64,000 bases of DNA from an uncultured Actinomycetota bacterium (GTDB taxonomy: Bacteria; Actinomycetota; Thermoleophilia; RBG-16-64-13), in contig CAVZSN010000010.1 in assembly GCA_963777945.1 (NCBI GenBank), forward strand, positions 4,473 to 68,472. The letters are read 5' to 3'. Position 1 is the stretch's first letter. Every line of letters begins with the position of its first letter. A model generated the notes under the pieces. That model saw only the letters and a list, made by a program, of their open reading frames with translations. It had not been told where the DNA came from and ran no database searches. The translations under genes and the position numbers were made by a program. Positions 43,499-64,000 of the stretch are shown piece by piece.

Positions 43499-44021
43499 AT
43501 GTCGGGACGAAGCAGACAGTCGACCGTGGTCCTTCTCGTCGCCATCGCGTCTGGCCGTCTTTCTTGGGGCTGCGGAGGCGGCGGCCAAGTGGACGACTCC
43601 ACGGTCTCCACCAACGTCGTCAAGACCACCGCACGACGGCCGCGCTCCTCGGTGCAGAGCGAAGTCGACAGCATCCTGTACGAAGCTGGCCGTGACAGAG
43701 GACACTCCTGAGGAGTATGTCGCGGCCATCGGTCAGGCCCGTCCCGTGGTCGTGCTGTTCTACGTTCCCGGCAATGTGGACGACGTCAAGGTGCTCGACG
43801 CGCTTCAAGGCCCTCGCAGTCGGAGTTCCCCGACTACACGTTCCTCACGTACGACTATCAAGATCCCAGCAGCTACGGCGACCTTTCCATGCTGCTGCAG
43901 GTAAACTATCCGCCTGAGATCAGTGCTCATCGACCGGGACGGCACCGTCAGGAATATCTGGAACGGTTATGTCGACGAGGGCACTCTGAGGCAGTGTCTG
44001 ATCAACCTCGGGCAAGGATGA
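43499..44021 (+). CDS. Putative lipoprotein with thioredoxin-like fold lacking CxxC (indels)
   Basis: Hydrophobic N-terminus then SWG-C-GGGG; RPVVVLFYVPGNVDD; LQVNYPPE.VLIDRDGTV..WNGYVDEGTL. Confidence 0.6.
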
Positions 44022-44091: not shown

Positions 44092-45677
44092 GTGCGGTCG
44101 ACCGGTGACGACTCGAGAGAGCCAATGACTCGGCGGGTCTCGCCTACGGGACCCGGGTGGCCGACCGTCTTCGCTCGTGCACCTTCTCCGGGCCGCTCGT
44201 GGGGGCACATGACGCCACGGCGAGGCGGGCAGCAAGGACTGCGGAAGCCTGGTCCGCATCGAGTTGCGGCTTCGAGGCCGGCCCGATCCAGGAGGCCCGG
44301 TACCAGGCCCACGGATGCCCGGCCACTCTCGCCAGCGCCAGTCAGGTGTGCGCCCGCGTTGACCGGCCGACCTTCCTCGAGGCCGCCGTCCGTCAGCCGA
44401 GGCGCGATATCTGCCACGACCTGGGGCTCGTCCCGTCGAAGGAGTACACGGCCGGCGTCGCCCTCGACGCCCTACACGATGCCCTCACGGCGGCCGTCAG
44501 CTCCCCCGCACCTGCGAGGTGGGCCGTCGCGGACCGAGCCCGATGCCCGGGATACCCTGGCGCGAGGGAGTGCTGGTGGGGATGAGCGGGGGTGTTGACA
44601 GCGCGGTAGCCGCTCTTCTGTTGAAGGAGCAGGGCTTCCGGGTGGTAGGCGTCACGCTGACTCTGTGGAACGACCCGGGCGTGGCAGACGAGCGCAGTTG
44701 CTGCTCGCCGGAGAACGTCAGCCGGGCGCGAAGGGTGGCGCACAGCCTCGGGCATCCCTCACCTGGCACTCGACGCGAAAGAGGCCTTCTACCGGCAGGT
44801 GGTGGAGTACTTCGTCTCCGAGTATGCGGCCGGCCGGACGCCGAATCCCTGCGCCAAGTGCAATTCACGGGTGCGGATAGGAGTGCTCGTGGAGGCGGCC
44901 CGTCGCCTGGGCTTGTCCCGGGTCGGCCACCGGTCACTACGCCCGACTCACCGGGAGCCTCCGCCGGACTGGCCCGCGGCGCTCGATCCGATGAAGGACC
45001 AGTCCTACGTGCTGGCGGAGGTGTCTCCGGAGATCCTCGAGCATCTGATATTCCCTCTCGGCGAGATGCGCAAGCCGGAGGTACGGCAGATGGCGGCGCA
45101 GGCCGGGCTCGAGGGCCACTCGGCGCCCGAGAGCCAGGAGATCTGCTTCGTCCCCGACGACGATCATCGGCGCTTTCTACGCGAGCGCCTGGGCGATCTG
45201 CCCGGGCGACATCGTCGACAGGGCAGGCGCGGCGCTCTGGGGCGCCACGAAGGGACGTACAACTTCACCATCGGTCAGCGCAAGGGACTGCGGGTCGCCG
45301 CCGGAGAGCCGCGCTACGTCGTGGCGATCGACGCCAACGAGCGTCGGGTGGTCGTCGGGCACCGCGCGAGAGGCCGAGATGAGTGCGATCCGGGTCGCCG
45401 GAGTCGGTATGGCACCGCAGGCTCGAGCGGTGGCCCGCTCGCCGCACAGGTACGCTCCGCGGGAGCGGCGCTTCCCGTTGCCGAGCTGAGGTGGCCGCCG
45501 ACGAGATCGACAGTCTCTCTGGCAGTACCGGCCGTGGGGGTTGCTCCGGGCCAGACCGCGGTCGTCTACGAGGCCGACGAGGTGATCGTCGCCGGCACCA
45601 TCACCTCCACCGACGGGATGGGCCGGCAGGACTCGATGCTGACCTGCAGAAAGAGCTGGAATTGGCCTGTGGTATAG
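44092..45677 (+). CDS. mnmA: tRNA 2-thiouridine synthase MnmA preceded by an IscU/NifU_N-like domain (fused or overlapping; indels)
   Basis: N-terminal part: [43 protein letters not shown]. MnmA part: [56 protein letters not shown]. Confidence 0.92.
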
Positions 45678-46794: not shown

Positions 46795-46845
46795 GTGCCA
46801 CCGACCGAGACTGCAATGTGGCGGCCGGGAGCACCGGATGTGACT

Positions 46846-47653
46846 ATGGCCTATGGTGACGGATTGAAGACGATGTCCCAGAGCGAGACCTGCTTGTCCT
46901 GGTCCGCGATCGCAAAGATGCCGCAGCCAGAGAGGAACTGATCACGCGCTATCTGCCGCTGGTACGGAGTCTTGCCCGTCGGTTCGCGTCTCGCGGGCAA
47001 CCGGTCGAGGACCTCATCCAGGTCGGAAGCATCGGTCTGATCAAGGCCATCGACCGGTTCGATCTTGACAGGGGCGTGGAACTCTCCACGTATGCCACCC
47101 CGACCATCCTGGGCGAGATCAAGCGATACTTCCGCGACAAGGGCTGGGCCGTGAAGGTCCCCCGGGCCCTGCAGGACCTCAACACCAGGCTCAACAGGGT
47201 CATGGAGTCACTGACCGTGGAACTGCGTAGGTCTCCGACCATCAGTGAGTTGGCGGGCGCAACGGGGGCGACAGAGGAGGAAGTGGTCGAAGCCCTGGAG
47301 AGCGGGCGGGCCTACAACTCCGTCTCGATCTATCTCCGGCGGAAGTCCGGACGAGGACGAATCCGCAGGCTTGCTGGACTGCCTGGGGATGGAGGAGGAG
47401 GCCTACGAGGTCTTCGAGCAGCGCCGGGTGCTGGCGCCCGCCATGGAACGGCTCGATCCTCGGGAGCGATTCATCCTTCACCTGCGTTTCTTCGAGGGTA
47501 TGACCCAGACCCAGGTGGCGGCGCGGATCGGCATCTCGCAGATGCACGTGTCGCGGCTGATACGGAAATCGATAGAGAATCTCCGTCTAGTACATGGCGG
47601 AAGACGAGTCCCCGGAGCCTGGCGGCGCGGGGGAGAGAGGCGAGGTCTGATTC

Positions 47654-47657
<4 letters not shown>
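46846..47657 (+). CDS. SigB/SigF/SigG family RNA polymerase sigma factor (indels)
   Basis: YLPLVRSLARRF, EDLIQVGSIGLIKAIDRFD, YATPTILGEIKRYFRDKGWAVKVPR, LRFFEGMTQTQVA..IGISQMHVSRL. Confidence 0.94.
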
Positions 47658-50285
<2,628 letters not shown>

Positions 50286-52811: not shown

Positions 52812-54564
52812 ATGCCGTCCATGCAGAGCGACCAGAGAGGAGAATGCTGCAGCGGAGGCTGGTAGGCCGGCCGACCGGCGAGGTGCTCGTCGACATGGGT
52901 CTGCTGACCCAGGAGCAGGTCGACCAGGCGGCGGCCGAGCAGCAGGTCACCCATCAGCGCATCGGGGAGATAGCTCTTTCCAAGGGCTGGGTGACCAAGG
53001 GCGATCTCATGCAGGCGCTGGCCCGCCGCCTCGGCGTGCAAGTACCTCGATCTGAGCCGTCACCCGCATCGACCCGGTGGCCCTCGAGCTGATCTCCGAG
53101 CGCGACGCTCGCCGGTACTCTGCGATCCCGGTCAGCTTCGTGGACGAGCACACCGTGCTCGTGGCGATGGCCGACCCCTCGAACATCGTCGCCATCGACG
53201 ACCTGCGCATCCTGACCGGCTTCGATATCGAACCAGGACTGGCCAGCAACGAAGAGATCGTCGAGATGCTCAGCAAGCTGCGCTCTGCCGGACGACCAGC
53301 TCTCGCGAGGACTTCGAAGCAAGGATCGGGGCCGGCGAGGAGGACGTCCAGTCGTCGACGACATGCGCGACATCCGCGAGCAGGTGGAGGCCGCGCCGGT
53401 CGTCAAGCTGGTCAACGGCGTGCTCGCGCGCGCGGCGGACGAAGGCGCGTCGGACATCCACTTCGAGCCCCAGGCCAGGGATCTGCTGATCCGCTTCCGG
53501 CACGACGGCGTGCTCCACGAGATCATGACCATTCCCAAGACGACTGCAGGCCGGGGTCATCTCTCGTCTGAAGATCATGGCCGACCTCGACATCGCTGAG
53601 CGGCGGATCCCCCAGGACGGGCGCATCGGCCTCACCGTGGGCGGCCGGCCCATCGACATGCGGGTCGCCTCGCTGCCCACCGTCTACGGCGAGAAGGTCG
53701 TCATCCGCCTCCTGGACCGCTCCAACGTGATGCTGCGCCTCGAGGAACTCGGGCTTCTCCGAGCAGCGCTCTCAACCGCTACCGCCGCTCGTTCCAGAAG
53801 CCATACGGCGCCATCCTGGTCACCGGTCCGACCGGCTCCGGGCAAGTCCACCACGCTGTACGCCACTCTCAACATCCTCAACACGCGGGACAAGAACATC
53901 ATCACGGTCGAGGACCCGGTGGAATACCGGCTGGCAGGCATCAACCAGGTACAGATCAACCCCAAGGCGGGTCTGACCTTCGCGTCCGGCCTGAGATCGA
54001 TCCTGCGCTGCGACCCCGACATCGTCATGGTCGGCGAGGTGCGGGACAAGGAGACCGCCCAGATCGCCATCGAGTCGGCCCTCACCGGCCACCTGGTGCT
54101 GTCCACCCTGCACACCAACGACGCTCCCGGGCGCTCTCACCCGGCTCACCGAGATGGGTGTCGAGCCCTTCCTGACCGCGTCGGCCGTGGACTGCGTGAT
54201 CGCCCAGAGGCTGGTCCGCAAGCTCTGCGAGTACTGCCGGGAGCCGTACACACCTACCCGGGACATCCTTCGTCAGGTGGGCTTCACCAGCGACGCGATC
54301 GACGAGCAGGGACGAGATCACCCTCTACCGCGCCGTCGGTTGTCCTCGCTGCAACAACACCGGCTACAAGGGCCGCATGGGCGATCTACGAGATCATGCT
54401 GGTGACCGAGGCGATAGAAAGGCTCATCGTCGAGCGCAAGAGTGCCGATGAGATAGGGCGAGTAGCCACGAGCGGAGGGCATGATGTCTCTTCGCCAGGA
54501 CGGCCTTGAGCGCGTGCTCCAGGGGATGACCAGCATCGAGGAGATCTCCCGGGTCATCGTGTGA
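52812..54564 (+). CDS. pilB: Type IV pilus assembly ATPase PilB (GspE/PulE family) with MshEN-like N-terminus (indels)
   Basis: [67 protein letters not shown], CxxC zinc motifs. Confidence 0.94.
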
Positions 54565-54603: not shown

Positions 54604-55677
54604 ATGGATATAGGCGAGATCCTGAGAGAAGTGGTCCAGACGCAAGCATCGGACCTTCATCTGGCGGTGGGACTGCCGCCGGTCGTGCGTGTCGACGGCC
54701 ATCTGCGGAACCTCGAAGGCTACCCCGAACTGACGGCCAACGAGGCTCGCGAGCTCATCTACAGCATCCTGAACCAGGACCAGCGTCAGAAGCTCGAGAC
54801 CGACTGGGAGGTCGACCTCTCCTACTCTCTGTACGGCCAAGCCCGCTTCCGGGTCAACGCGTTCTTCCACAAGGGGACGCTCGCGGCGGCCTTCCGGCTC
54901 ATCCCGGTGAACATCAAGACGATCGACGAACTGGCGCTTCCCAAGGTGCTGCACACCTTCTGCCACAAGCCGCGCGGATTCGTGCTGGTCACCGGGCCGA
55001 CCGGCTCGGGCAAGTCGACGACCCTGGCCGCCATCATCGACGAGATCAACGAGACGCAGAGCGGACCACATCGTCACCATCGAGGACCCCATCGAGTTCC
55101 TGCACACCCACAAGCGCTGCGTGGTGAACCAGCGAGAGGTGGGGAGCGACACGAAGGGCTTTCCGCAGTCGCTCTGCGCTCCGCGCTGCGGCAGGACCCC
55201 GACGTCATCCTGATCGGCGAGATGCGCGACCTGGAGACCATCCAGATCGCTCTCGACCGCGGCCGAGACCGGCCACCTGGTGTTCGCCACGCTTCACACG
55301 CAGGACTGCCCGCAGACCATCGACCGCATCATCGACGTCTTCCCGCCTCACCAGCAGGAGCAGATCCGGGTGCAGATAGCCGCCACCCTCGAAGGCGTCG
55401 TCACGCAGCAGCTCCTGCCCAAGACTTCAGGAGCAGGACGGGTGGCCGCCTGCGAAGTCCTGATATCCACGCCTGCGGCCAAGAACCTCATCCGCGAAGG
55501 GCAAGACCCACCAGCTCTACACGGTCATGCAGACCGGCGGCCAGCACGGCATGCAGACGATGAACTCCTGCCTCGCCGACCTGGTTCAAGCGGAGCCACA
55601 TCAGCCGGGAGCTGGCGCTCCGGCGCTCGTCGGTGCCCGACGAGCTCGAGCGCCTGCTGCTGTCCGGCGCAGCCTGA
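54604..55677 (+). CDS. pilT: Type IV pilus retraction ATPase PilT (indels)
   Basis: [77 protein letters not shown]. Confidence 0.95.
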
Positions 55678-55740: not shown

Positions 55741-55770
55741 CTATAGGCCCGGCGCTCCCGGGCCGATATA
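55741..55770 (+). promoter_or_regulatory. Putative sigma28/WhiG-type promoter for pilC
   Basis: C-TATA-N16-GCCGATAT in the pilT-pilC gap, about 53 nt upstream of the pilC start. Confidence 0.6.
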
Positions 55771-55822: not shown

Positions 55823-57042
55823 GTGGGAACTTTCACGTATACGGCTAAGAAGGAGCGCGGAGCCCTGTTCACCGGTGAAGCGATGGGCGACTCCAAGGCG
55901 GCGGTCGTCGCCGAACTGCGCCGGAAGGGCCTCACGGTCGTCAGTCTCGAGGAGAAGCGGGGCGTGCTCGACCTCAAGACCATGCTGGAGAACAGCAAGC
56001 GCATCAGCGTGCGCGACAAGGCGGTCTTCGCCCGGCAGTTCGCCACCATGATCAATTCGGGCCTCGCCGTGCTGCGCGCGCTGTACGTCCTCGAGGAGCA
56101 GACCCAGAACCCGCGGCTTCAAGAAGATCATCAAGGCTGGTGCGCGACGACGTCGAAGCGGGCATGCCGCTCTCCGACGCCATGGCCAAGCATCCGGCCG
56201 CCTTCGACCGGCTCTACGTCGCTATGGTGCGAGCCGGCGAGGCGAGCGGCGCGCTCGACCAGACGCTCCTCCGCCTGGCCACTCAGCTGGAGAAGCAGGA
56301 CAGCCTGCGCCGGTCCATCAAGTCGGCCATGACCTATCCGATCCTGATCGCGGTCTTCGCCATCATGGTCATGATCGGCATGCTGCTCTTCATCATCCCG
56401 ATCTTCGCCAACATGTACAAGGACCTGGGCGGGCAACTGCCCGAGCCTGACCCGGATGATGATGGGCGTCAGCAACATGCTGAAGGGCTACTGGTTCATC
56501 ATCTTCCCGGTGATCATCCTGATCGTGTGGGCCTTGATCCGGCTCAAGAACACCGAGCAGGGCCGCAGAGCCTGGGACCGCTTCAAGCTCAAGCTGCCCA
56601 TGAAGCTCGGGCCGCATCATCCAGAAGATCGCCGTGGCCCGCTTCAGCCGGACCCTCGCTACGCTGGTCGGCTCCGGCGTGCCCATCCTGCAGGCCATCG
56701 AGATCACCGGCAAGACCTCCGGCAACACGGTCATCGAAGAAGCCATGGTGGACGTCAAGGAGAGCGTCCGCAGCGGCGAGCCCATCGCCAAGCCTCTGAT
56801 GCGCGTCGCGGTGTTTCCGCCGATGGTCACGCACATGATCTCCATCGGGGAGGAGACCGGCGCGCTCGACTCCATGCTCAACAAGATCGCCGACTTCTAC
56901 GAAGACGAAGTCGACGCCGCCGTGAAGTCGCTCACGTCGATCATCGAGCCGATCATGATGATGTTCGTCGGCGGTCTGGTCGGGCGTCATCGTCATCTCC
57001 ATGTACCTGCCGATGTTCAACATGATGAACCTGGTCAAGTAG
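55823..57042 (+). CDS. pilC: Type IV pilus platform protein PilC (GspF family; indels)
   Basis: FARQFATMINSGL, MVRAGEASGAL, SAMTYP, RFSRTLATL..SGVPIL, IGEETGALDSML.KIADFYE, IEP, MYLPMF. Confidence 0.95.
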
Positions 57043-57832: not shown

Positions 57833-58548
57833 CTAGAGCAGCTTGCGCAGCTCCTTGTAGAGCAGCAGACTGCATCAACTGCGACAGGAGCGACCCCAGG
57901 TCCTCCACCATCTTCTCGCCGTACTCGCGCTTGTCGGCGTGCGTCGACCGCAGCGACGGCGTGGTGATCTGCTCCACAAGCGCCGCCTCCCGCTCGACCG
58001 ACGAGCTGAGCAGGCGAAGATTGCGGGGCTCCACCCCGAACCGGACCAGCAGCTGGCAGATGCGGGCGATCTCGAGGTCGCTCTCGGTGAAGACCGCTCC
58101 CTGCTGGCCCGGCCGATCGATAAGCCGATACTCGACGAGCAGGCGCAAGAAGGCCGCGTCGATGCCGGCATTCTCGCAGACCTCTTCCTGTGTATACACG
58201 GCGTCTTCACGCTTGAGGCCGCGGCTCGCCGCCCAGGCGGCCGGATGCGGCAGAGCGGCTGGCCGAGCATCCCGGGCGCAGGGCGCGTCGACGCGCTCGC
58301 GGATGACCTCGAGCGGCAGGTACTCGTCTCGCTGCAGGGTGAGGATCGTGCGCAGGCGCCGGACGTCGGCCGCCGCTGTACTTGCGGTAGCGTCCCGGGG
58401 TCCTGCTCGGGGCCAGGAGGCCCCGGTCCTCGAGGTAGCGGACCTTGGTGATGCTGAGGTCCGGGAAGTCCGACTTGCAGTTGATCGACCACCTGGCCGA
58501 TCGTCGAGCAGGTGCACCGTCGTCTTTCATAGTCGGTCCGGCCCTCAC
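57833..58548 (-). CDS. MerR family regulator (FtsR/Rv1828-like; indels)
   Basis: TIGQVVDQL, FPDLSITKVRYLEDRGLL.P.RT.GRYRKY, LQRDEYLPLEVIRE, FGVEPRNLR; follows an FHA gene as in other actinobacteria. Confidence 0.88.
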
Positions 58549-59028
58549 AGTTCACCGGTGATCTCGTCGGTCTGCTCCAGGAAGGCCAGCTTGAACTTGC
58601 CTATCTGCAGCTCGTCGCCATCGAGGAGCCTGTGGCGCTCGATCCGCTTGCGGTTGACGTAGGTGCCGTTGAGGCTGTTGAGGTCCTCCACCCAGAAACC
58701 CGCCTTCATCGCGGAGGACCCGGGCGTGATGGCGCGAGACGGTGACGTCGTCCAGGAAGAGGTCGCTGTGCGGGCTGCGCCCGATGGTGAGCACGTCGAC
58801 GTCGAGGTCGATGGTCTCCCCTTCGCGGCCGCCGCCGGAGCGGATGAGCAGGACGTGACCTGCCGTCCCCGACAGCGTCAAGCGCTCCTGCGCCGGTGTC
58901 CTCGCGCTCGCCCGCGAAGTACGTGATGGTCGTCTCTTGAGGTCGACGGCTATCAGCCGGCTGCCACAGCGCCGGCAGTAGTTCGAGTCTTCGGTGTTGT
59001 CGAAGCTACAGGTCGGGCAGTCGAGCAT
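58545..59028 (-). CDS. Zinc-ribbon + FHA domain protein (GarA/OdhI-like; indels)
   Basis: CPTC...CRRCG, ETTITY in a shifted frame, IGRSPHSDLFLDDVTVSRHHA, DLNSLNGTYVN, ELQIGKFKL. Confidence 0.9.
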
Positions 59029-59367
59029 CGGTCGTCCCTTCCCGGCTGAGGTGTCGCTGGTGAGTGCTCTCCCCACTCGCTTCGGCTCCTCCGACCGACT
59101 CGCCGTAGTCGGCGAACTGCCTGCGGATCTGCTCCTCGATGCCCTTGATCACTCGCGGGTCCTCGAAGATGCGGCTCGCGCGCCAGGTCGTCGGAATGCG
59201 CGACCACGTACGGGTCGTCGCAGGATGTCGTCGACGTGCCGGCCGCTCTCGACCTGACGTACGATGTAGCGGACCAGGCGCTCCTCGCGCACATCGACGG
59301 AGAGGTCACGAAACCGCTCTCGATACCTCGGGCTGGCGGCTCGCTCTTCTGGCTCACGGTCGACCAC
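59006..59367 (-). CDS. Hypothetical helical protein (indels; end approximate)
   Basis: VREERLVRYIVRQVESGRHVDDIL.DPYVVAH...RVIKGIEEQIRRQF; fills the gap between the RsiG-like and FHA genes. Confidence 0.6.
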
Positions 59368-59380
59368 TCACTTGCTGGGT

Positions 59381-59645
59381 TCAGCCGGCTCGCTGCCGCT
59401 TGCCACTGAGGATGTCGGTGAGCGCCGCCACATCGCCGCATCCAGCACCAGCCCGCCCCCGCGCTGTGCTTGTCGCGGAGCCGCCTGACCATCTCGGCCC
59501 GGACGATGTCGATCTCGCCGTGGAGAAGGCGTCTGCGCTTCGAGAGCTCCCGCTCCTCGGCCGCAAGCGGATCGGCCAGCTCGCGCAGCTCCTCGTCGCT
59601 GTACGACTGGATGTTGATCAGACGTTCGAAAGAAGTGTCGTCCAT
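59381..59645 (-). CDS. rsiG: Single-motif RsiG-like c-di-GMP-binding anti-sigma factor (indel near the 3' end)
   Basis: SDEELRELAD.LAAEERELSKRRRLLHGEIDIVRAE matches E-x3-S-x2-R-x3-(Q/H)-x3-D; C-terminal helix DVAALTDILSGK. Confidence 0.8.
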
Positions 59646-59661
59646 GGTGCTCCACACCCTT

Positions 59662-59698
59662 ACTATAGAGGTTCCCCCCGGAACCTTCAACCTGAGGT
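59662..59698 (-). promoter_or_regulatory. Sigma-A promoter of the rsiG-FHA-merR unit with overlapping dyads
   Basis: Minus strand TTGAAG-N17-TATAGT; dyads AGGTTCC-N4-GGAACCT (59669-59686) and ACCT-N8-AGGT (59683-59698). Confidence 0.6.
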
Positions 59699-59741
59699 GG
59701 AGATACGCACACGTGCGGCCGACGCGGCTACGCGGAAGCGG

Positions 59742-60125
59742 TTACTCTTCTTCGCTGAGGAGCTCCTCGTACTCCTCGGCGCTCATGAGATCGTCGATCT
59801 CGGAGGGATCCGCGAGGCGGACCTTGATGAGCCAGCCATCCTCGAAGGGGCTCTCGTTGATGAGCTCGGGAGCGTCGACGACTTCTTCGTTGACTTCGAC
59901 GACCGAACCGCTCAGCGGTGCGTAGACATCGGAGACGGCCTTCACCGATTCGACCTCGGCGTAGGGCGTCCCTGCCGTGACGTCCGCGCCTACCTCGGGG
60001 AGTTCGATGTACACGATGTCACCGAGTGTCTCCTGGGCGTAGCTGGTGAGACCAAAGACTGCGGTATCACCCTCGACCCGGGCCCAGTCGTGCTCCCTGT
60101 GGTACTTGAGGTTCTTGGGGTTCAC
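59742..60125 (-). CDS. gcvH: Glycine cleavage system H protein
   Basis: YHREHDW, AQETLGDIVYIELP, VESVKAVSDVYAPLSG (lipoyl-Lys), NESPFEDGWL; intact ORF. Confidence 0.97.
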   Translation of the reverse strand: MNPKNLKYHREHDWARVEGDTAVFGLTSYAQETLGDIVYIELPEVGADVTAGTPYAEVESVKAVSDVYAPLSGSVVEVNEEVVDAPELINESPFEDGWLIKVRLADPSEIDDLMSAEEYEELLSEEE

Positions 60126-60261
60126 ATGCGCTCCTTTCTCGCCACCATCGGCTGGCCGTCATGATAGCACAGCGGTTTTTGTCGCTCCGGACGGACGGAC
60201 GACACGCACGGGAGCGGCTTGTATACTCAGTGGCGTGATCCGCGCACAAGGAGGATGAGCG

Positions 60262-60760
60262 ATGCCAAGCCGCAGAGGACTGGTCATCAGCGACGAGCAG
60301 ATGAGGCTGATCGACGGCCGTGCTCGAGAAGCTGCGGATGGTGTCCGGCTCGCAGTTCGCCGCGCTCATCTCCACCAGCGGCCAGCCTATCGCCGTCTCC
60401 CCGCCGGACGTCGCGCTCCGACACGCTGTCTCTGGCGCTCTCGCCGCCAGCTCCTTCGCCGCCACCCGGCAGCTGGCCCAGATACTCAGCGAGCGCGAGT
60501 TCACGCTGCTCGTTCCACGAGGGCAAGGAAGCCAATCTCCACGTGATGCAGGTGACCGACCAGATCCTGCTTCTCATCACCTTCGGCCGCGATACCCAGG
60601 TGGGCCGGGTCCGTCTCTACACCAGCCGGGCGCTCGAGGTCCTCAAGCCGGCTCTCGAGACTGCCGAAAATACCAGTGGAGACGACCAGCGTGGTCGATC
60701 GCGAGTACTCACGCGAGAGTCGGCGCGGCGATAGACGGTCTGTTCTCCGGACAGAGGTGA
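60262..60760 (+). CDS. mglB: Roadblock/LC7 protein MglB (GAP for MglA; indels)
   Basis: LISTSGQPI, DTLSLA, FAATRQLAQILSEREF.LLFHEG, LLITF...QVGRVRL, C-terminal AIDGLFS; RBS AGGAGG. Confidence 0.85.
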
Positions 60761-60787
60761 CGCAGTAGCGGCAGTGGAGAACGACCT

Positions 60788-61374
60788 GTGGCACTGATCA
60801 ACCTCGCCGCGCGAGAGATCAACTACAAGATCGTCTACTACGGCTGCGGTCTGTGTGGCAAGACCACGAACATCCAGTACATCCACCGCCGCGTCAATCC
60901 CGCTGCGCGCGGACGCCTGGTCAGCATCGCCACCGAAGAGGAGCGCACGCTCTACTTCGACTTCCTGCCGCTGTCGGTGGGCACCGTCAAGGGTCTGCGC
61001 ACCCGGTTCCATCTCTATACCGTGCCCGGGCAGTCCTTCTACAACGCCTCGCGCAAGCTGGTGCTGCAGGGCATCGACGGCGTGGTGTTCGTGGCCGACA
61101 GCCAGATCTCCCGGCTGGACGAGAACGTCGACAGCTACCTCAACCTCTGGGACAACCTGCGGTCGCAGGGCGAGGATCTGAGCAGGCTGGGCATGGTGCT
61201 GCAGATGAACAAGCGCGACCTGGGCGACGATCTTCTCGGTGGCCGACCTGACCGAACTGCTCAACCACACCGGCTCGCCGGTGATCGAGGCCTGCGCCCT
61301 CAGCGGCGTCGGGCGTGTTCGAGACCCTCAAGACCGTCTGCAAGCAGGTGATCGCGAAGAGCACCGAGGCCTAG
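60788..61374 (+). CDS. mglA: Small Ras-like GTPase MglA (indels near the 3' end)
   Basis: [75 protein letters not shown]. Confidence 0.92.
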
Positions 61375-61401
61375 CTCGCGACCCGGTGCGTCGCCTCGCC
61401 G

Positions 61402-63910
61402 CTAGTCCGCCCCTCGGCGACGACTTCCGCAGTATCTCCCGGTACTTGTCGGCCAGCTCAGCCGGCCCGCGCGTCGTCCCCCGCTTCGGCGTAGACGTGG
61501 AACAGCGGCTCCTCGGCATCGGGAAGCACCAGGGCCCACTCCGCGTGGTCGAGGAACACCTTGATGCCGTCGACGAGCGAGACCCGGCCATCGTGCAGCT
61601 TCTCCGTCATGCGGCGCATCACGGTACCCTTGAGTTCCCAGGGGCAGTCCGACCTGCAGATGGACCACGTGGGCCACCGGCAGCGGCGCGACCAGCTGCG
61701 ACAGCGGCGCATCGGAGGTGGAGACCAGCTCCAGCACCTTGCCCAGAGCGTAGAGGCCGTCCAGGGAGGGCAGGACCGCCGGGTAGATGTAGCCTCCGTC
61801 GGTGCTGGCGGCGAAGATGGTGTTCGGACGGGTCGCCTCGGCCATCAGGGCAGCCTTGGAGTACTTGGTGCGGCGGATGCTGACGCCGGTGGAGGCGACC
61901 ACCTGCTCGCCGAGCCGGGTGGCATGCAGCGGCAGGGCCGCCACTCCCGCGCCGGCCTCGCGGGCGGCGTGCTGAAGCAGCAGGAGCAGCAGGGCCGAAT
62001 CGGGGATCAGCCGGCCCTTCTCGTCGACCACGTAGAGGTATTCCGCTCCCGGATCGAGGATGGCCCCCAGGTCGGCCTCCATGGCCCGGACCATCTCCCC
62101 CACCCGCGCGGCCGCGGCCGGCAGGCTCTCGCCGAGCGTGAAGCGCGAGCGGCTCCGGGAGAAGGTGTTGAGGGCGATCGTCTCCACCCCAAGCTTGTCC
62201 AGCGTGGCCGGGAAGAAGAAGGCCGGCGCCGAGAGCGAGTAGTCGAGCACCAGCCGGGGCTGCCGCCCCGGATGGCCACGGTGTTCCAGTTCTCGAGCAG
62301 CGAGTTGGTGTAGGTCTCGATGACCCGGGGCGGATAGACGACCTGGCCCATCTCTTCGAAGGCGGCCCGCCGGAAGTCCTCGCGGAAGTAGTGGTTCTCG
62401 ATGGCCCGCTCCCGCTTGCCGTCCAGGGGCACACCCGGCGCCTCGGAGAAGAGGATCTCGATGTGCTCGGGGTTCTCGAGGCTCATCTGCACGTGGATGC
62501 CGCCGACCGCGTTGCCGCTCTTGATGTCGAAGCGGTTGACGGCGAGCGGCGCCGTGGTGAGGTCGCGGACGTTCACCCCGGTGGAGTTGAGGCCGCTGAT
62601 GATGGCCCGCTTGAAGACGCGGCAGGCCTGGTGGGTGTCGCGGCTGGTGGTGACGTAGGAGCCCTTGCTGATGAGCGTGCCGTAGGACATGGCCAGGCGC
62701 ATGGCCATCTCGGGAGTGACGTCGACGTTGGCCAGGCCGCGCACTCCGTTGCGCCCGAAAAGGGTGCTGGGCCCCGCGTCTCCCAGACGATCGACGAGCG
62801 GACGGTCGAGCCCGGCTCGATGTTCTTGAAGCGGGTAGATCTTGACGTTGTTGGCCACCACGGCGTTGCGGCCGACGATCGAGCGGTCGCCGACCACGGC
62901 GCCCTCGGCGATGTGCGCGTTCTCGTGCACCTCCACCCCGTCCACAGCACCGCGCCCGTCGACGACGGCCCCGGAGGCCACGTAGACGTTCTGCGCCCAG
63001 GACCGAGCCGCCGATCTGCGCGCCGGTCCGCACCACGGTGTTGTCGCCCAGCACGGTGTGCGAGAGGATCCGGGCGCCCGGGTCGATGCGGACGTTCTCG
63101 CCGATGACGGCCGGGCCCTCGACGTCGTCGAGGCTCTCGAGCGACGGCGCCCTTGCCCACCCAGATGTTGCCGCGCAGCCGGACGCCCGGCGGAGTCAGG
63201 CGGATCTTGCCGTCGAGCGCGTCGCGGTTGGCCTGCAGGTACTGCTCGAGGCTGCCGACGTCCTGCCAGTAGCCGTCGCAGACCATGCCGTAGAGCGGCT
63301 TGTGCATGTCGAACAGCTTGGGGAACAGGTCGTGGCTGAAGTCGTAGGGCTGCCCCTCGGGGATGTGGTCGAAGACCTCGGGCTCGATCACGTAGATGCC
63401 GGTGTTGACCGTGTCGGAGAAGACCTGGCCCCAGCCCGGCTTCTCCAGGAAGCGCTGGATGCGGCCCTCGTCGTCGACGATGACCACTCCGAACTCGAGC
63501 GGGTTCTCCACGCTCTTGAGGGCGATGGTGACCATCGCCTCGCGCTGCTTGTGGAAGTCGATCACCTTGGTGAGGTCGAAGTCGGTGAGCGCGTCGCCGC
63601 TGATGACCAGGAAGGTGTCGTCGAGAAGGTCCTTGGCCAGCCGGATGGAGCCGGCGGTGCCCGCCGGCGTCTCCTCCACCGTGTAGTCGATGTGCATGCC
63701 CAGGCTGCTGCCGTCGCCGAAGTAGTTGCGGATGAGCCGGGGCAGGAAGGCCAGGGTCATGACCACTTCGTTGATGCCGTGCCGCTGGACCAGTTCGAGG
63801 ATGTGCTGGATGGTGGGCTTGTTGACGACCGGCACCATCGGCTTGGGCTGGTTGGAGGTCAGCGGGCGAAGTCGAGTGCCCTGACCACCGGCCATGACGA
63901 CTGCCTTCAC
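61402..63910 (-). CDS. Mannose-1-phosphate guanylyltransferase / phosphomannomutase-like fusion (indels)
   Basis: [46 protein letters not shown], hexapeptide repeats, [19 protein letters not shown]...W.LVLPD. Confidence 0.9.
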
Positions 63911-64000
63911 GGGAGCCTCCTGGTCGCGGATGACGACGTCACAGCGAGACACTACCCGAAAGAGTAGCAGGGAACGCAGCAGGCCGGAACAGTGCAAGGC

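Follow-up and report, generated by a model that had tools for sequence, protein, structure and literature searches.

A two-gene unit, mglB followed by mglA, occupies positions 60262-61374 of the plus strand in a 64,000-nucleotide stretch of DNA (referred to here as the window) from an uncultured soil actinobacterium of the class Thermoleophilia, and there is very little doubt that it encodes a genuine, functional group-1 MglA/MglB pair. The explanation which best accounts for the evidence as a whole, and which is considered probable, is that the pair is an old, vertically kept polarity switch that most likely serves type IV pili. The pair extends a known system to a new host lineage and is not a new kind of system, and its mechanism is the one that would be predicted by homology.

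Work on group-1 MglA and MglB has dealt with diderm bacteria. The 2014 survey of the family, in those of its sections that were available, records group 1 in twelve lineages which do not include the Actinobacteria, and places the Actinobacteria under groups 2 and 5 only (PMC4316618). No literature joining MglA with Thermoleophilia was found, and reports on MglA and MglB in Actinobacteria or Actinomycetota describe no group-1 pair in their titles and abstracts, which cover that literature incompletely. The MfpD preprint makes no mention of Thermoleophilia, Rubrobacter, group 1 or MglA-type proteins. The presence of a conserved group-1 pair in an actinobacterial lineage that is widespread in soil and wetland extends the known range of the switch.

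Genes were placed in the window by tblastn with the proteins of a relative that is 95% complete (G001), which also served as the reference for intact orthologues; a GC3 filter was too blunt for gene calling. The genome to which the window belongs comprises 2.57 Mb in 11 contigs and is 59% complete by marker genes.

Identity of the gene pair

The first gene of the unit, mglB (60262..60760, plus strand), encodes a predicted Roadblock/LC7 GTPase-activating protein of about 166 amino acids when it is read across seven private single-base indels. Its pieces are spread over three frames, the last piece reads AAIDGLFSGQR before 60760, and the true stop probably lies within 60760-60770. The second gene, mglA (60788..61374, plus strand), starts with GTG on the same strand, 27 bases beyond the end of mglB, and encodes a Ras-like GTPase of about 194 amino acids when it is read across two private single-base insertions (61229 and 61310); the segment 60788-61228, which includes the NKRD motif, is in one frame (frame 2), and the remainder is in two other frames. 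The same pairing of mglB with mglA is found in all six of the other genomes examined.

The first-pass annotation of this DNA had described the pair as lying opposite to its neighbours, with a -10 box of its own, and both observations are borne out. The adjoining genes are both on the minus strand: gcvH (59742..60125), which diverges from mglB, is intact, encodes 127 amino acids and is 96% identical to the gcvH of G001 (158.8 bits against GCV_H for the G001 protein), while the GMPP/PMM fusion gene (about 61402-63997) converges with mglA and encodes, in G001, a protein of 802 amino acids with NTP_transferase, Hexapep and PGM_PMM domains. Also on the minus strand are an rsiG-like gene of the single-motif anti-sigma type (59375..59779), which is frameshifted as assembled into four pieces in three frames, and, in the same operon direction, a zinc-ribbon/FHA gene (58563-59112) and a MerR-family gene (57836-58530). 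The annotation had further remarked that DUF881 genes are usual at this location in actinomycetes; this applies in part, in that two members of the family (G013 and G023) carry two DUF881 genes, along with a VanW gene, in the space between mglA and the GMPP gene.

The -10 box TATACT is present at 60222-60227 as part of a promoter-like site, ACGACA-17-TATACT (60199..60227, plus strand), which is the sole sigma-70-like site in 59900-61600 (one found, compared with 0.1 expected by chance). The sequence CTTGTATACT is invariant in all six aligned genomes of the family, and similar boxes lie upstream of mglB in G012, G013, G023, G031 and G026. A putative Shine-Dalgarno-like element, AAGGAGGA (60249..60256, plus strand), can be read from the sequence ahead of the mglB ATG at 60262, and each of the six aligned sequences has an AAGGAGG-like purine run before mglB. 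A search downstream of mglA found no intrinsic terminator.

All four of the group-1 motifs previously ascribed to MglA are present in frame 2 of 60788-61228. The P-loop reads GCGLCGKT and the G4 motif reads NKRD, in agreement with the patterns GxxxxGK(T/S) for G1 and NKxD for G4. In the segment ERTLYFDF, the arginine next to the G2 threonine is aligned with the Arg-Thr of the solved M. xanthus and T. thermophilus MglA proteins, and in the G3 segment YTVPGQS the sequence TVPGQ, which is invariant in a 20-sequence alignment, takes the place of DxxGQ. Residues 1-147 of the window's MglA match M. xanthus MglA (6hjh_A) with an E value of 7e-59 and T. thermophilus MglA (3t12_A) with an E value of 2e-55, in both cases with no gaps. 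For the intact MglA of G001, which is 95% identical to the window's MglA piece, the corresponding values are 5e-70 and 2e-64 over 189-190 residues, and the next match is Arf1 at 3e-6. Neither Pfam nor NCBIfam holds a dedicated MglA family model.

The C-terminal IDxLFS element which had been noted in MglB is likewise present, as IDGLFS. When the intact G001 orthologue (166 amino acids) is compared with the solved M. xanthus MglB (6izw_B), the match has an E value of 5e-18 over residues 7-161 and includes the alignment of IDGLFS with IDNLFS; the match of the same orthologue to T. thermophilus MglB has an E value of 9e-12, compared with only 0.003 for a generic Roadblock protein. The G001 protein contains a Roadblock/LC7 domain, with a score of 48 bits against Pfam Robl_LC7 (cut-off 23), and the fragments of the window's own MglB fall below this cut-off (18.1 vs 23) because the frame is broken. 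The sole NCBIfam match is the Thermus-type MglB equivalog model NF052242, which is detected on positions 60513-60689 of the window with an E value of 4e-7. MglB scores 67.2 bits against this model, short of the cut-off of 200, and the protein would be best classified as a relative of this model and not as a member of the equivalog.

Group 1 is defined, in the available part of the 2014 survey, by an arginine next to the G2 threonine together with TVPGQ, and groups 2-5, which include the actinobacterial conservon, are stated there to have a threonine at the position of the arginine (PMC4316618). The present pair is assigned to the group-1 type because it has both the Arg-Thr and the TVPGQ, because MglA and MglB match the solved proteins from end to end, because the genome contains only one MglA-like GTPase match, and because it lacks the hallmarks of a conservon: neither a kinase gene nor a DUF742 gene adjoins the pair, whose neighbours are gcvH and the GMPP/PMM gene, and DUF742, the conservon partner, has no match anywhere in the genome (59% complete by markers). 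An interpretation of the pair as a divergent conservon (Cvn) GTPase pair would have the phylum of the host in its favour, but it is at odds with the lack of kinase and DUF742 genes, with the arginine finger and TVPGQ, and also with the sampling of 373 genomes outside the class, none of which reaches an E value of 1e-30 with this MglA. Its probability is negligible, and the original description of the pair as belonging to the Myxococcus/Thermus type, and not to the conservon type, is upheld.

Frame breaks in the assembled genes

As assembled, both mglB and mglA are closed. An alignment of the window with five other members of its family (G001, G004, G007, G021 and G020) attributes this to nine single-base indels that are private to the window, seven of them in mglB (insertions at 60316, 60411, 60511, 60686, 60718 and 60755, and one deletion after 60436) and two of them in mglA. 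There is in addition a window-private 4-base insertion at 60765-60768. The indels of the pair are not located in long homopolymers. Most of the flanking genes tested also show frame changes when they are compared with the G001 proteins, with at least six in alaS, four in pilC, three in pilT and two each in ruvX and the sigma gene. Exceptions in this comparison are gcvH, a DUF948 gene and a 142-aa ORF, each of which stays in one frame.

Contigs of relatives from four public metagenomes (at least 85% alike) lack the letter in question at, or no more than three bases from, 60316, 60411, 60511, 60686, 60718, 60755 and 61310, and at site 60511 the extra letter is absent in all four of the metagenome runs. 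The window's own strain was not found in the public runs (best share of words 0.09), and the indels were judged against relatives. The ratio dN/dS is 0.039 for the 147 in-frame codons of the window's mglA compared with G001. When G001 is compared with other genomes, the ratio for mglA is 0.036-0.10 within the window's own family (f1) and a second family (f3), and 0.23 against a third (f6); for mglB it is 0.064-0.08.

The indels of mglB and mglA can with high confidence be regarded as assembly errors and not as decay, because the flanking genes are also frame-broken, because the genes are under purifying selection, and because the letters are missing in relatives and in environmental contigs. 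If the pair were instead a decaying relict, consisting of pseudogenes in this genome, then the nine single-base indels and the 4-base insertion that break both frames would be accounted for, but a frequency of frame changes as high as that observed in essential genes such as alaS and ruvX would not, and neither would the low dN/dS of the in-frame part or the absence of the extra letters from relatives and environmental contigs. In addition, a marker completeness of no more than 59% for an 11-contig genome of 2.57 Mb is what is expected if genes are broken across the whole genome. Decay is thus very unlikely, and the term relict, which the first-pass annotation had proposed, does not survive, given that the genes are intact in relatives, that purifying selection on them is strong and that the breaks are common to most of the flanking genes tested. 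The concern that the segment might be misassembled was justified at one level and not at another: the order of the genes is sound, since the window and G001 run colinear for about 20 kb, and the sequence is error-rich at the level of single bases. For annotation, the genes of this assembly need to be read across frame errors, because most of them will otherwise be called pseudogenes.

Distribution and ancestry

The distribution of the pair was mapped by scoring MglA as present in a genome if it contained a match at an E value of 1e-30 or better. In an even sample of the phylum, MglA is present in 8 of 401 genomes, all of which are in the window's class, Thermoleophilia. In a sample of the class itself, it is present in 121 of 301 genomes, nearly all of which come from three families: f1 (44/47), f3 (56/58) and f6 (20/21). 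None of the nine other families of the class contains it (none of 175 genomes; by family, f2 0/58, f4 0/55, f5 0/23, f7 0/29, f8 0/4, and 0/5 in four small families). The window's own order, in which 34 of 37 genomes have MglA, holds only f1, so f3 and f6 must belong to at least one other order. The identities of PilT hint that f1, f3 and f6 may nevertheless form one clade. Among species-representative genomes, the best 80 of 195 related loci are all from metagenome-assembled genomes, and 79 of them carry one of the labels Thermoleophilia, Gaiellales, Actinomycetes or Actinomycetota, the remaining one being labelled just “bacterium”.

The surroundings of the pair are conserved along with it. 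The block formed by the GMPP/PMM gene, mglA and mglB, the rsiG-like gene, the zinc-ribbon/FHA gene, the MerR gene and apt is present in all six of the further genomes (three from f1, two from f3 and one from f6), and in f1 alone gcvH separates mglB from the rsiG-like gene. A quick maximum-likelihood tree was computed from seven Thermoleophilia MglA sequences and 144 representatives of a 50%-identity library, which are unnamed and mostly 300-900 amino acids long; six of the 150 representatives had been dropped because they had fewer than 175 aligned residues. This tree tests only whether the Thermoleophilia form one clade, and it places the seven sequences, together with their own library representative, in a single clade with an SH-aLRT value of 100, within which the two f3 sequences are grouped and f6 has its own branch apart from f1 and f3. 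One of about ten tree neighbours, P0040, has near relatives that are named Acidobacteriota or Terriglobales, which is only a hint; the neighbours in the protein atlas (Chloroflexota, Acidobacteriota, Myxococcota and Nitrospirota) do not discriminate a donor.

The family-wise distribution, the conserved synteny, the single MglA clade, the low dN/dS and the matching G+C content together lead to the conclusion that the module is an old, vertically inherited resident of three uncultured Thermoleophilia families, which span at least two orders and in which selection has kept it. A recent horizontal acquisition, in which the pair would form an island in this organism, could be suspected from its opposite orientation to both neighbours and from the lack of group-1 MglA in any sampled Actinomycetota genome outside the class. 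It is nevertheless highly improbable, because the position and orientation of the pair are the same in three families, because its G+C content (0.63-0.66) is equal to that of its flanks, because the sequences form one MglA clade with the branching just described, and because no mobile-element genes are found among the neighbours scanned. The earlier suggestion that the pair was acquired can therefore be retained at most for an old event, and fails for a recent one.

Putative output and comparison with known systems

Three type IV pilus motor genes, pilB (52853-54561), pilT (54604-55674) and pilC (55823-57039), all on the plus strand and all frameshifted as assembled, are located in the window, and in each of the four f1 genomes examined the genes pilB-pilT-pilC lie about 3 kb from mglB. 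Their orthologues in G001 score 482.6 and 170.3 bits against T2SSE and 220.1 bits against T2SSF (Pfam). A PilM match shares the contig with mglA, some 37 kb away from it, and of 93 genomes from the three families with MglA, 91 have PilT. In f3 and f6, pilBTC were not within the stretch examined around the mgl block. PilT is also much wider than MglA in the class (it occurs in f2, 20/36; f4, 27/33; f5, 10/13; and f7, 11/17), from which it follows that pili do not need MglAB in those families.

Genes for PATAN (DUF4388) proteins follow the family pattern of MglA, with 29/36 genomes in f1, 35/36 in f3 and 20/21 in f6, compared with 0/107 elsewhere in the class. In many f3 genomes a PATAN gene lies directly between mglB and the rsiG-like gene, and there is a conserved PATAN protein of 232 amino acids with an invariant four-cysteine C-terminal domain. 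PATAN genes are described as occasionally near group-1 mglA in the part of the 2014 survey that was available (PMC4316618), a preprint reports in its title contacts of PATAN response regulators with the pilus motor of Synechocystis, and PMC11580455, in its accessible portion, lists two PATAN proteins of M. xanthus as candidates without analysing them. The clean co-occurrence of MglA and PATAN at the level of the family yields a small, testable set of candidate partners.

The rsiG-like gene is beside mglB in all six of the other genomes, with gcvH intervening in f1. Its G001 orthologue scores 59 bits against Pfam RsiG (cut-off 27), and the motif E-x3-S-x2-R-x3-Q-x3-D is readable by eye in the G031 copy, so that by both domain and motif the neighbour qualifies as a predicted single-motif RsiG. 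In the sections of PMC8325347 that were available, RsiG-WhiG is reported to control pilus genes in Rubrobacter, and single-motif RsiGs are reported to occur in Thermoleophilia. A search for sigma-28/WhiG-type promoters (TAAA, 13-17 nt, GCCGATAA, with at most three mismatches in all) found none before mglB in the window, in any of six f1 relatives or in G031, and found one match with three mismatches upstream of mglB in G026. A sigma-28-like site with two mismatches (TATA, 16 nt, GCCGATAT; -10 part at 55762-55769) lies upstream of pilC; in G001 its counterpart, with three mismatches, is equally far from pilC. The sigma gene beside alaS was considered as a candidate for WhiG and rejected, since it belongs to the SigB/F/G family.

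By homology, MglA-GTP would mark one cell pole and engage effectors there, and the chemistry of GTP hydrolysis would be done by the arginine and glutamine of MglA itself once an MglB dimer has bound. This dimer, with a predicted GAP activity, would inactivate MglA at the opposite pole, and the pair would be modulated by the IDxLFS tail at the C-terminus of MglB. The output would most likely be the placement or activity of type IV pili.

Pili are favoured, if only slightly, as the output of the switch. The same genuine switch could instead set the polarity of growth, division or envelope synthesis, or could act with its conserved neighbours in a c-di-GMP-controlled programme. An output of this kind would agree with the identity of the neighbours that all three families have kept (the rsiG-like, zinc-ribbon/FHA and MerR genes), which are regulators and not pilus genes, with the DUF881 and VanW/peptidoglycan-binding genes that adjoin mglA in G013, G023 and f3, and with the presence of PilT in many families that have no MglA. 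It is nevertheless unlikely, since every studied group-1 MglA named by Wuichet and Sogaard-Andersen in 2014 acts in motility, pili or predation, as far as the available text of that survey goes (PMC4316618), since pilBTC adjoin the block in f1, and since the co-occurrence with PATAN points to the pilus motor. A more specific version of the pilus reading, which is tentative and on balance somewhat doubtful, is that lineage-specific partners (the 232-aa PATAN protein, and perhaps an MglC-like orphan Roadblock protein) replace the Myxococcus set, in which case the pair would form the minimal pilus-polarity module of a Gram-positive-type cell and would be genetically tied to a c-di-GMP-sensing rsiG operon. 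If this version is true, then c-di-GMP and the GTPase would jointly decide whether pili are made and where.

Four known systems are relevant to the interpretation of the pair as a polarity switch. The conservon (CvnA-D, or Mfp in mycobacteria, with a group-2 MglA) is like the present pair in that it occurs in the same phylum and joins a small Ras-like GTPase to a Roadblock protein; the present pair differs from it in having no kinase or DUF742 gene, in possessing the catalytic arginine and TVPGQ, and in its large sequence distance. The RsiG-(c-di-GMP)-WhiG switch of Rubrobacter and Streptomyces (PMC8325347, as available in part) is related to the locus through the rsiG-like gene that is the conserved divergent neighbour of mglB, but no sigma-28-type promoter precedes mglBA here, and the sigma gene of the window is not WhiG.

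The MglA/MglB pair of M. xanthus (PDB 6hjh, 6h5b, 6izw and 6hjm) is similar in that MglA aligns with it over residues 1-189 without gaps, with the P-loop, Arg-Thr, TVPGQ and NKRD in common, in that MglB aligns over 155 residues including the IDxLFS tail, and in that the operon order is also mglB then mglA. The host, in contrast, is an actinobacterium of the class Thermoleophilia, in which gliding machinery would not be expected, and the P-loop reads GCGLCGKT in place of the GPGL(C/S)GKT of the solved M. xanthus and T. thermophilus proteins. Compared with the T. thermophilus pair (PDB 3t12, 3t1q and 1j3w), the present MglB has 67 bits against the 200 required by the NCBIfam model of the Thermus type, and the synteny with the rsiG-like operon is specific to Thermoleophilia. 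The T. thermophilus pair is similar in the sequences of both proteins, at the E values given above for G001, and, like the present pair, it consists of two genes that stand alone as a module, in a host that has type IV pili; the Thermus and Deinococcus control genomes also carry PATAN genes.

Assembly quality and the genes around alaS

When compared with the intact proteins of G001, a relative in the window's own family (f1), most of the genes tested between window positions 44000 and 64000 show several reading-frame changes per gene, as in alaS (47654-50282) and pilC (55823-57039). Single-base indels are frequent in the window's assembly, and it is because of them that the marker completeness of the genome (2.57 Mb in 11 contigs) is 59%.

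Immediately upstream of alaS lies a gene for a SigB/SigF/SigG-family sigma factor (window 46795-47631, forward strand; locus L013:4185-5036), which scores 287.9 bits against TIGR02980, for which the cut-off is 234. The 142-aa ORF ahead of this gene has no Pfam match, and is possibly a regulator of the adjoining sigma factor. Also on the forward strand is mnmA, the tRNA thiolase gene (window 44130-45614; L013:1531-3045); the MnmA of G001, which has 504 aa, carries a NifU-like domain at its N-terminus. Past the window's end, G001 encodes a cytidylate kinase and a PlsC-type acyltransferase domain as a single 500-aa protein (L014:8290-9792, reverse strand).

A promoter-like site before pilC

A sigma-28/WhiG-like promoter match (TATA, 16 nt, GCCGATAT) is found upstream of pilC at window 55743-55769 on the forward strand, with 2 mismatches to TAAA/GCCGATAA, and the start of pilC follows about 53 nt downstream. 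The counterpart in G001 reads TATA, 16 nt, ACCGATAC, at an identical distance from pilC.

PATAN, Roadblock and MglA-domain proteins

About 160 kb from mglA is the gene for a conserved protein of 230-233 aa (G000:C10:226909-227373, reverse strand; locus L115:1288-1977) that joins an N-terminal PATAN (DUF4388) domain to a C-terminal part in which four cysteines are invariant; for this C-terminal part an NCBIfam search gave no family match. In an alignment of 17 sequences its orthologues are present in families f1 and f6, and they end in DLPFL or a close variant. In many genomes of family f3 a small PATAN gene, divergent from mglBA, separates mglB from the rsiG-like gene (in G031, at L019:10949-11572, forward strand); this position has no such gene in G026 or in family f1.

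Among the 150 top-ranking representatives of the 50%-identity library (P0002-P0150), the majority are 300-900 aa long with an N-terminal MglA domain; either long fusion proteins of MglA are frequent, or the choice of representatives favours long members.

A Roadblock/LC7 protein of 134 aa (G000:C3:140970-141371, reverse strand; locus L021:1402-1806) is an orphan, with no GTPase gene adjoining its own. At E 1e-10 its relatives were detected only in MglA-bearing families, at 13/15 in f1 and 11/15 in f3, with 0/15 in f6 and 0/45 in other families. This orphan protein may be an MglC-like partner.
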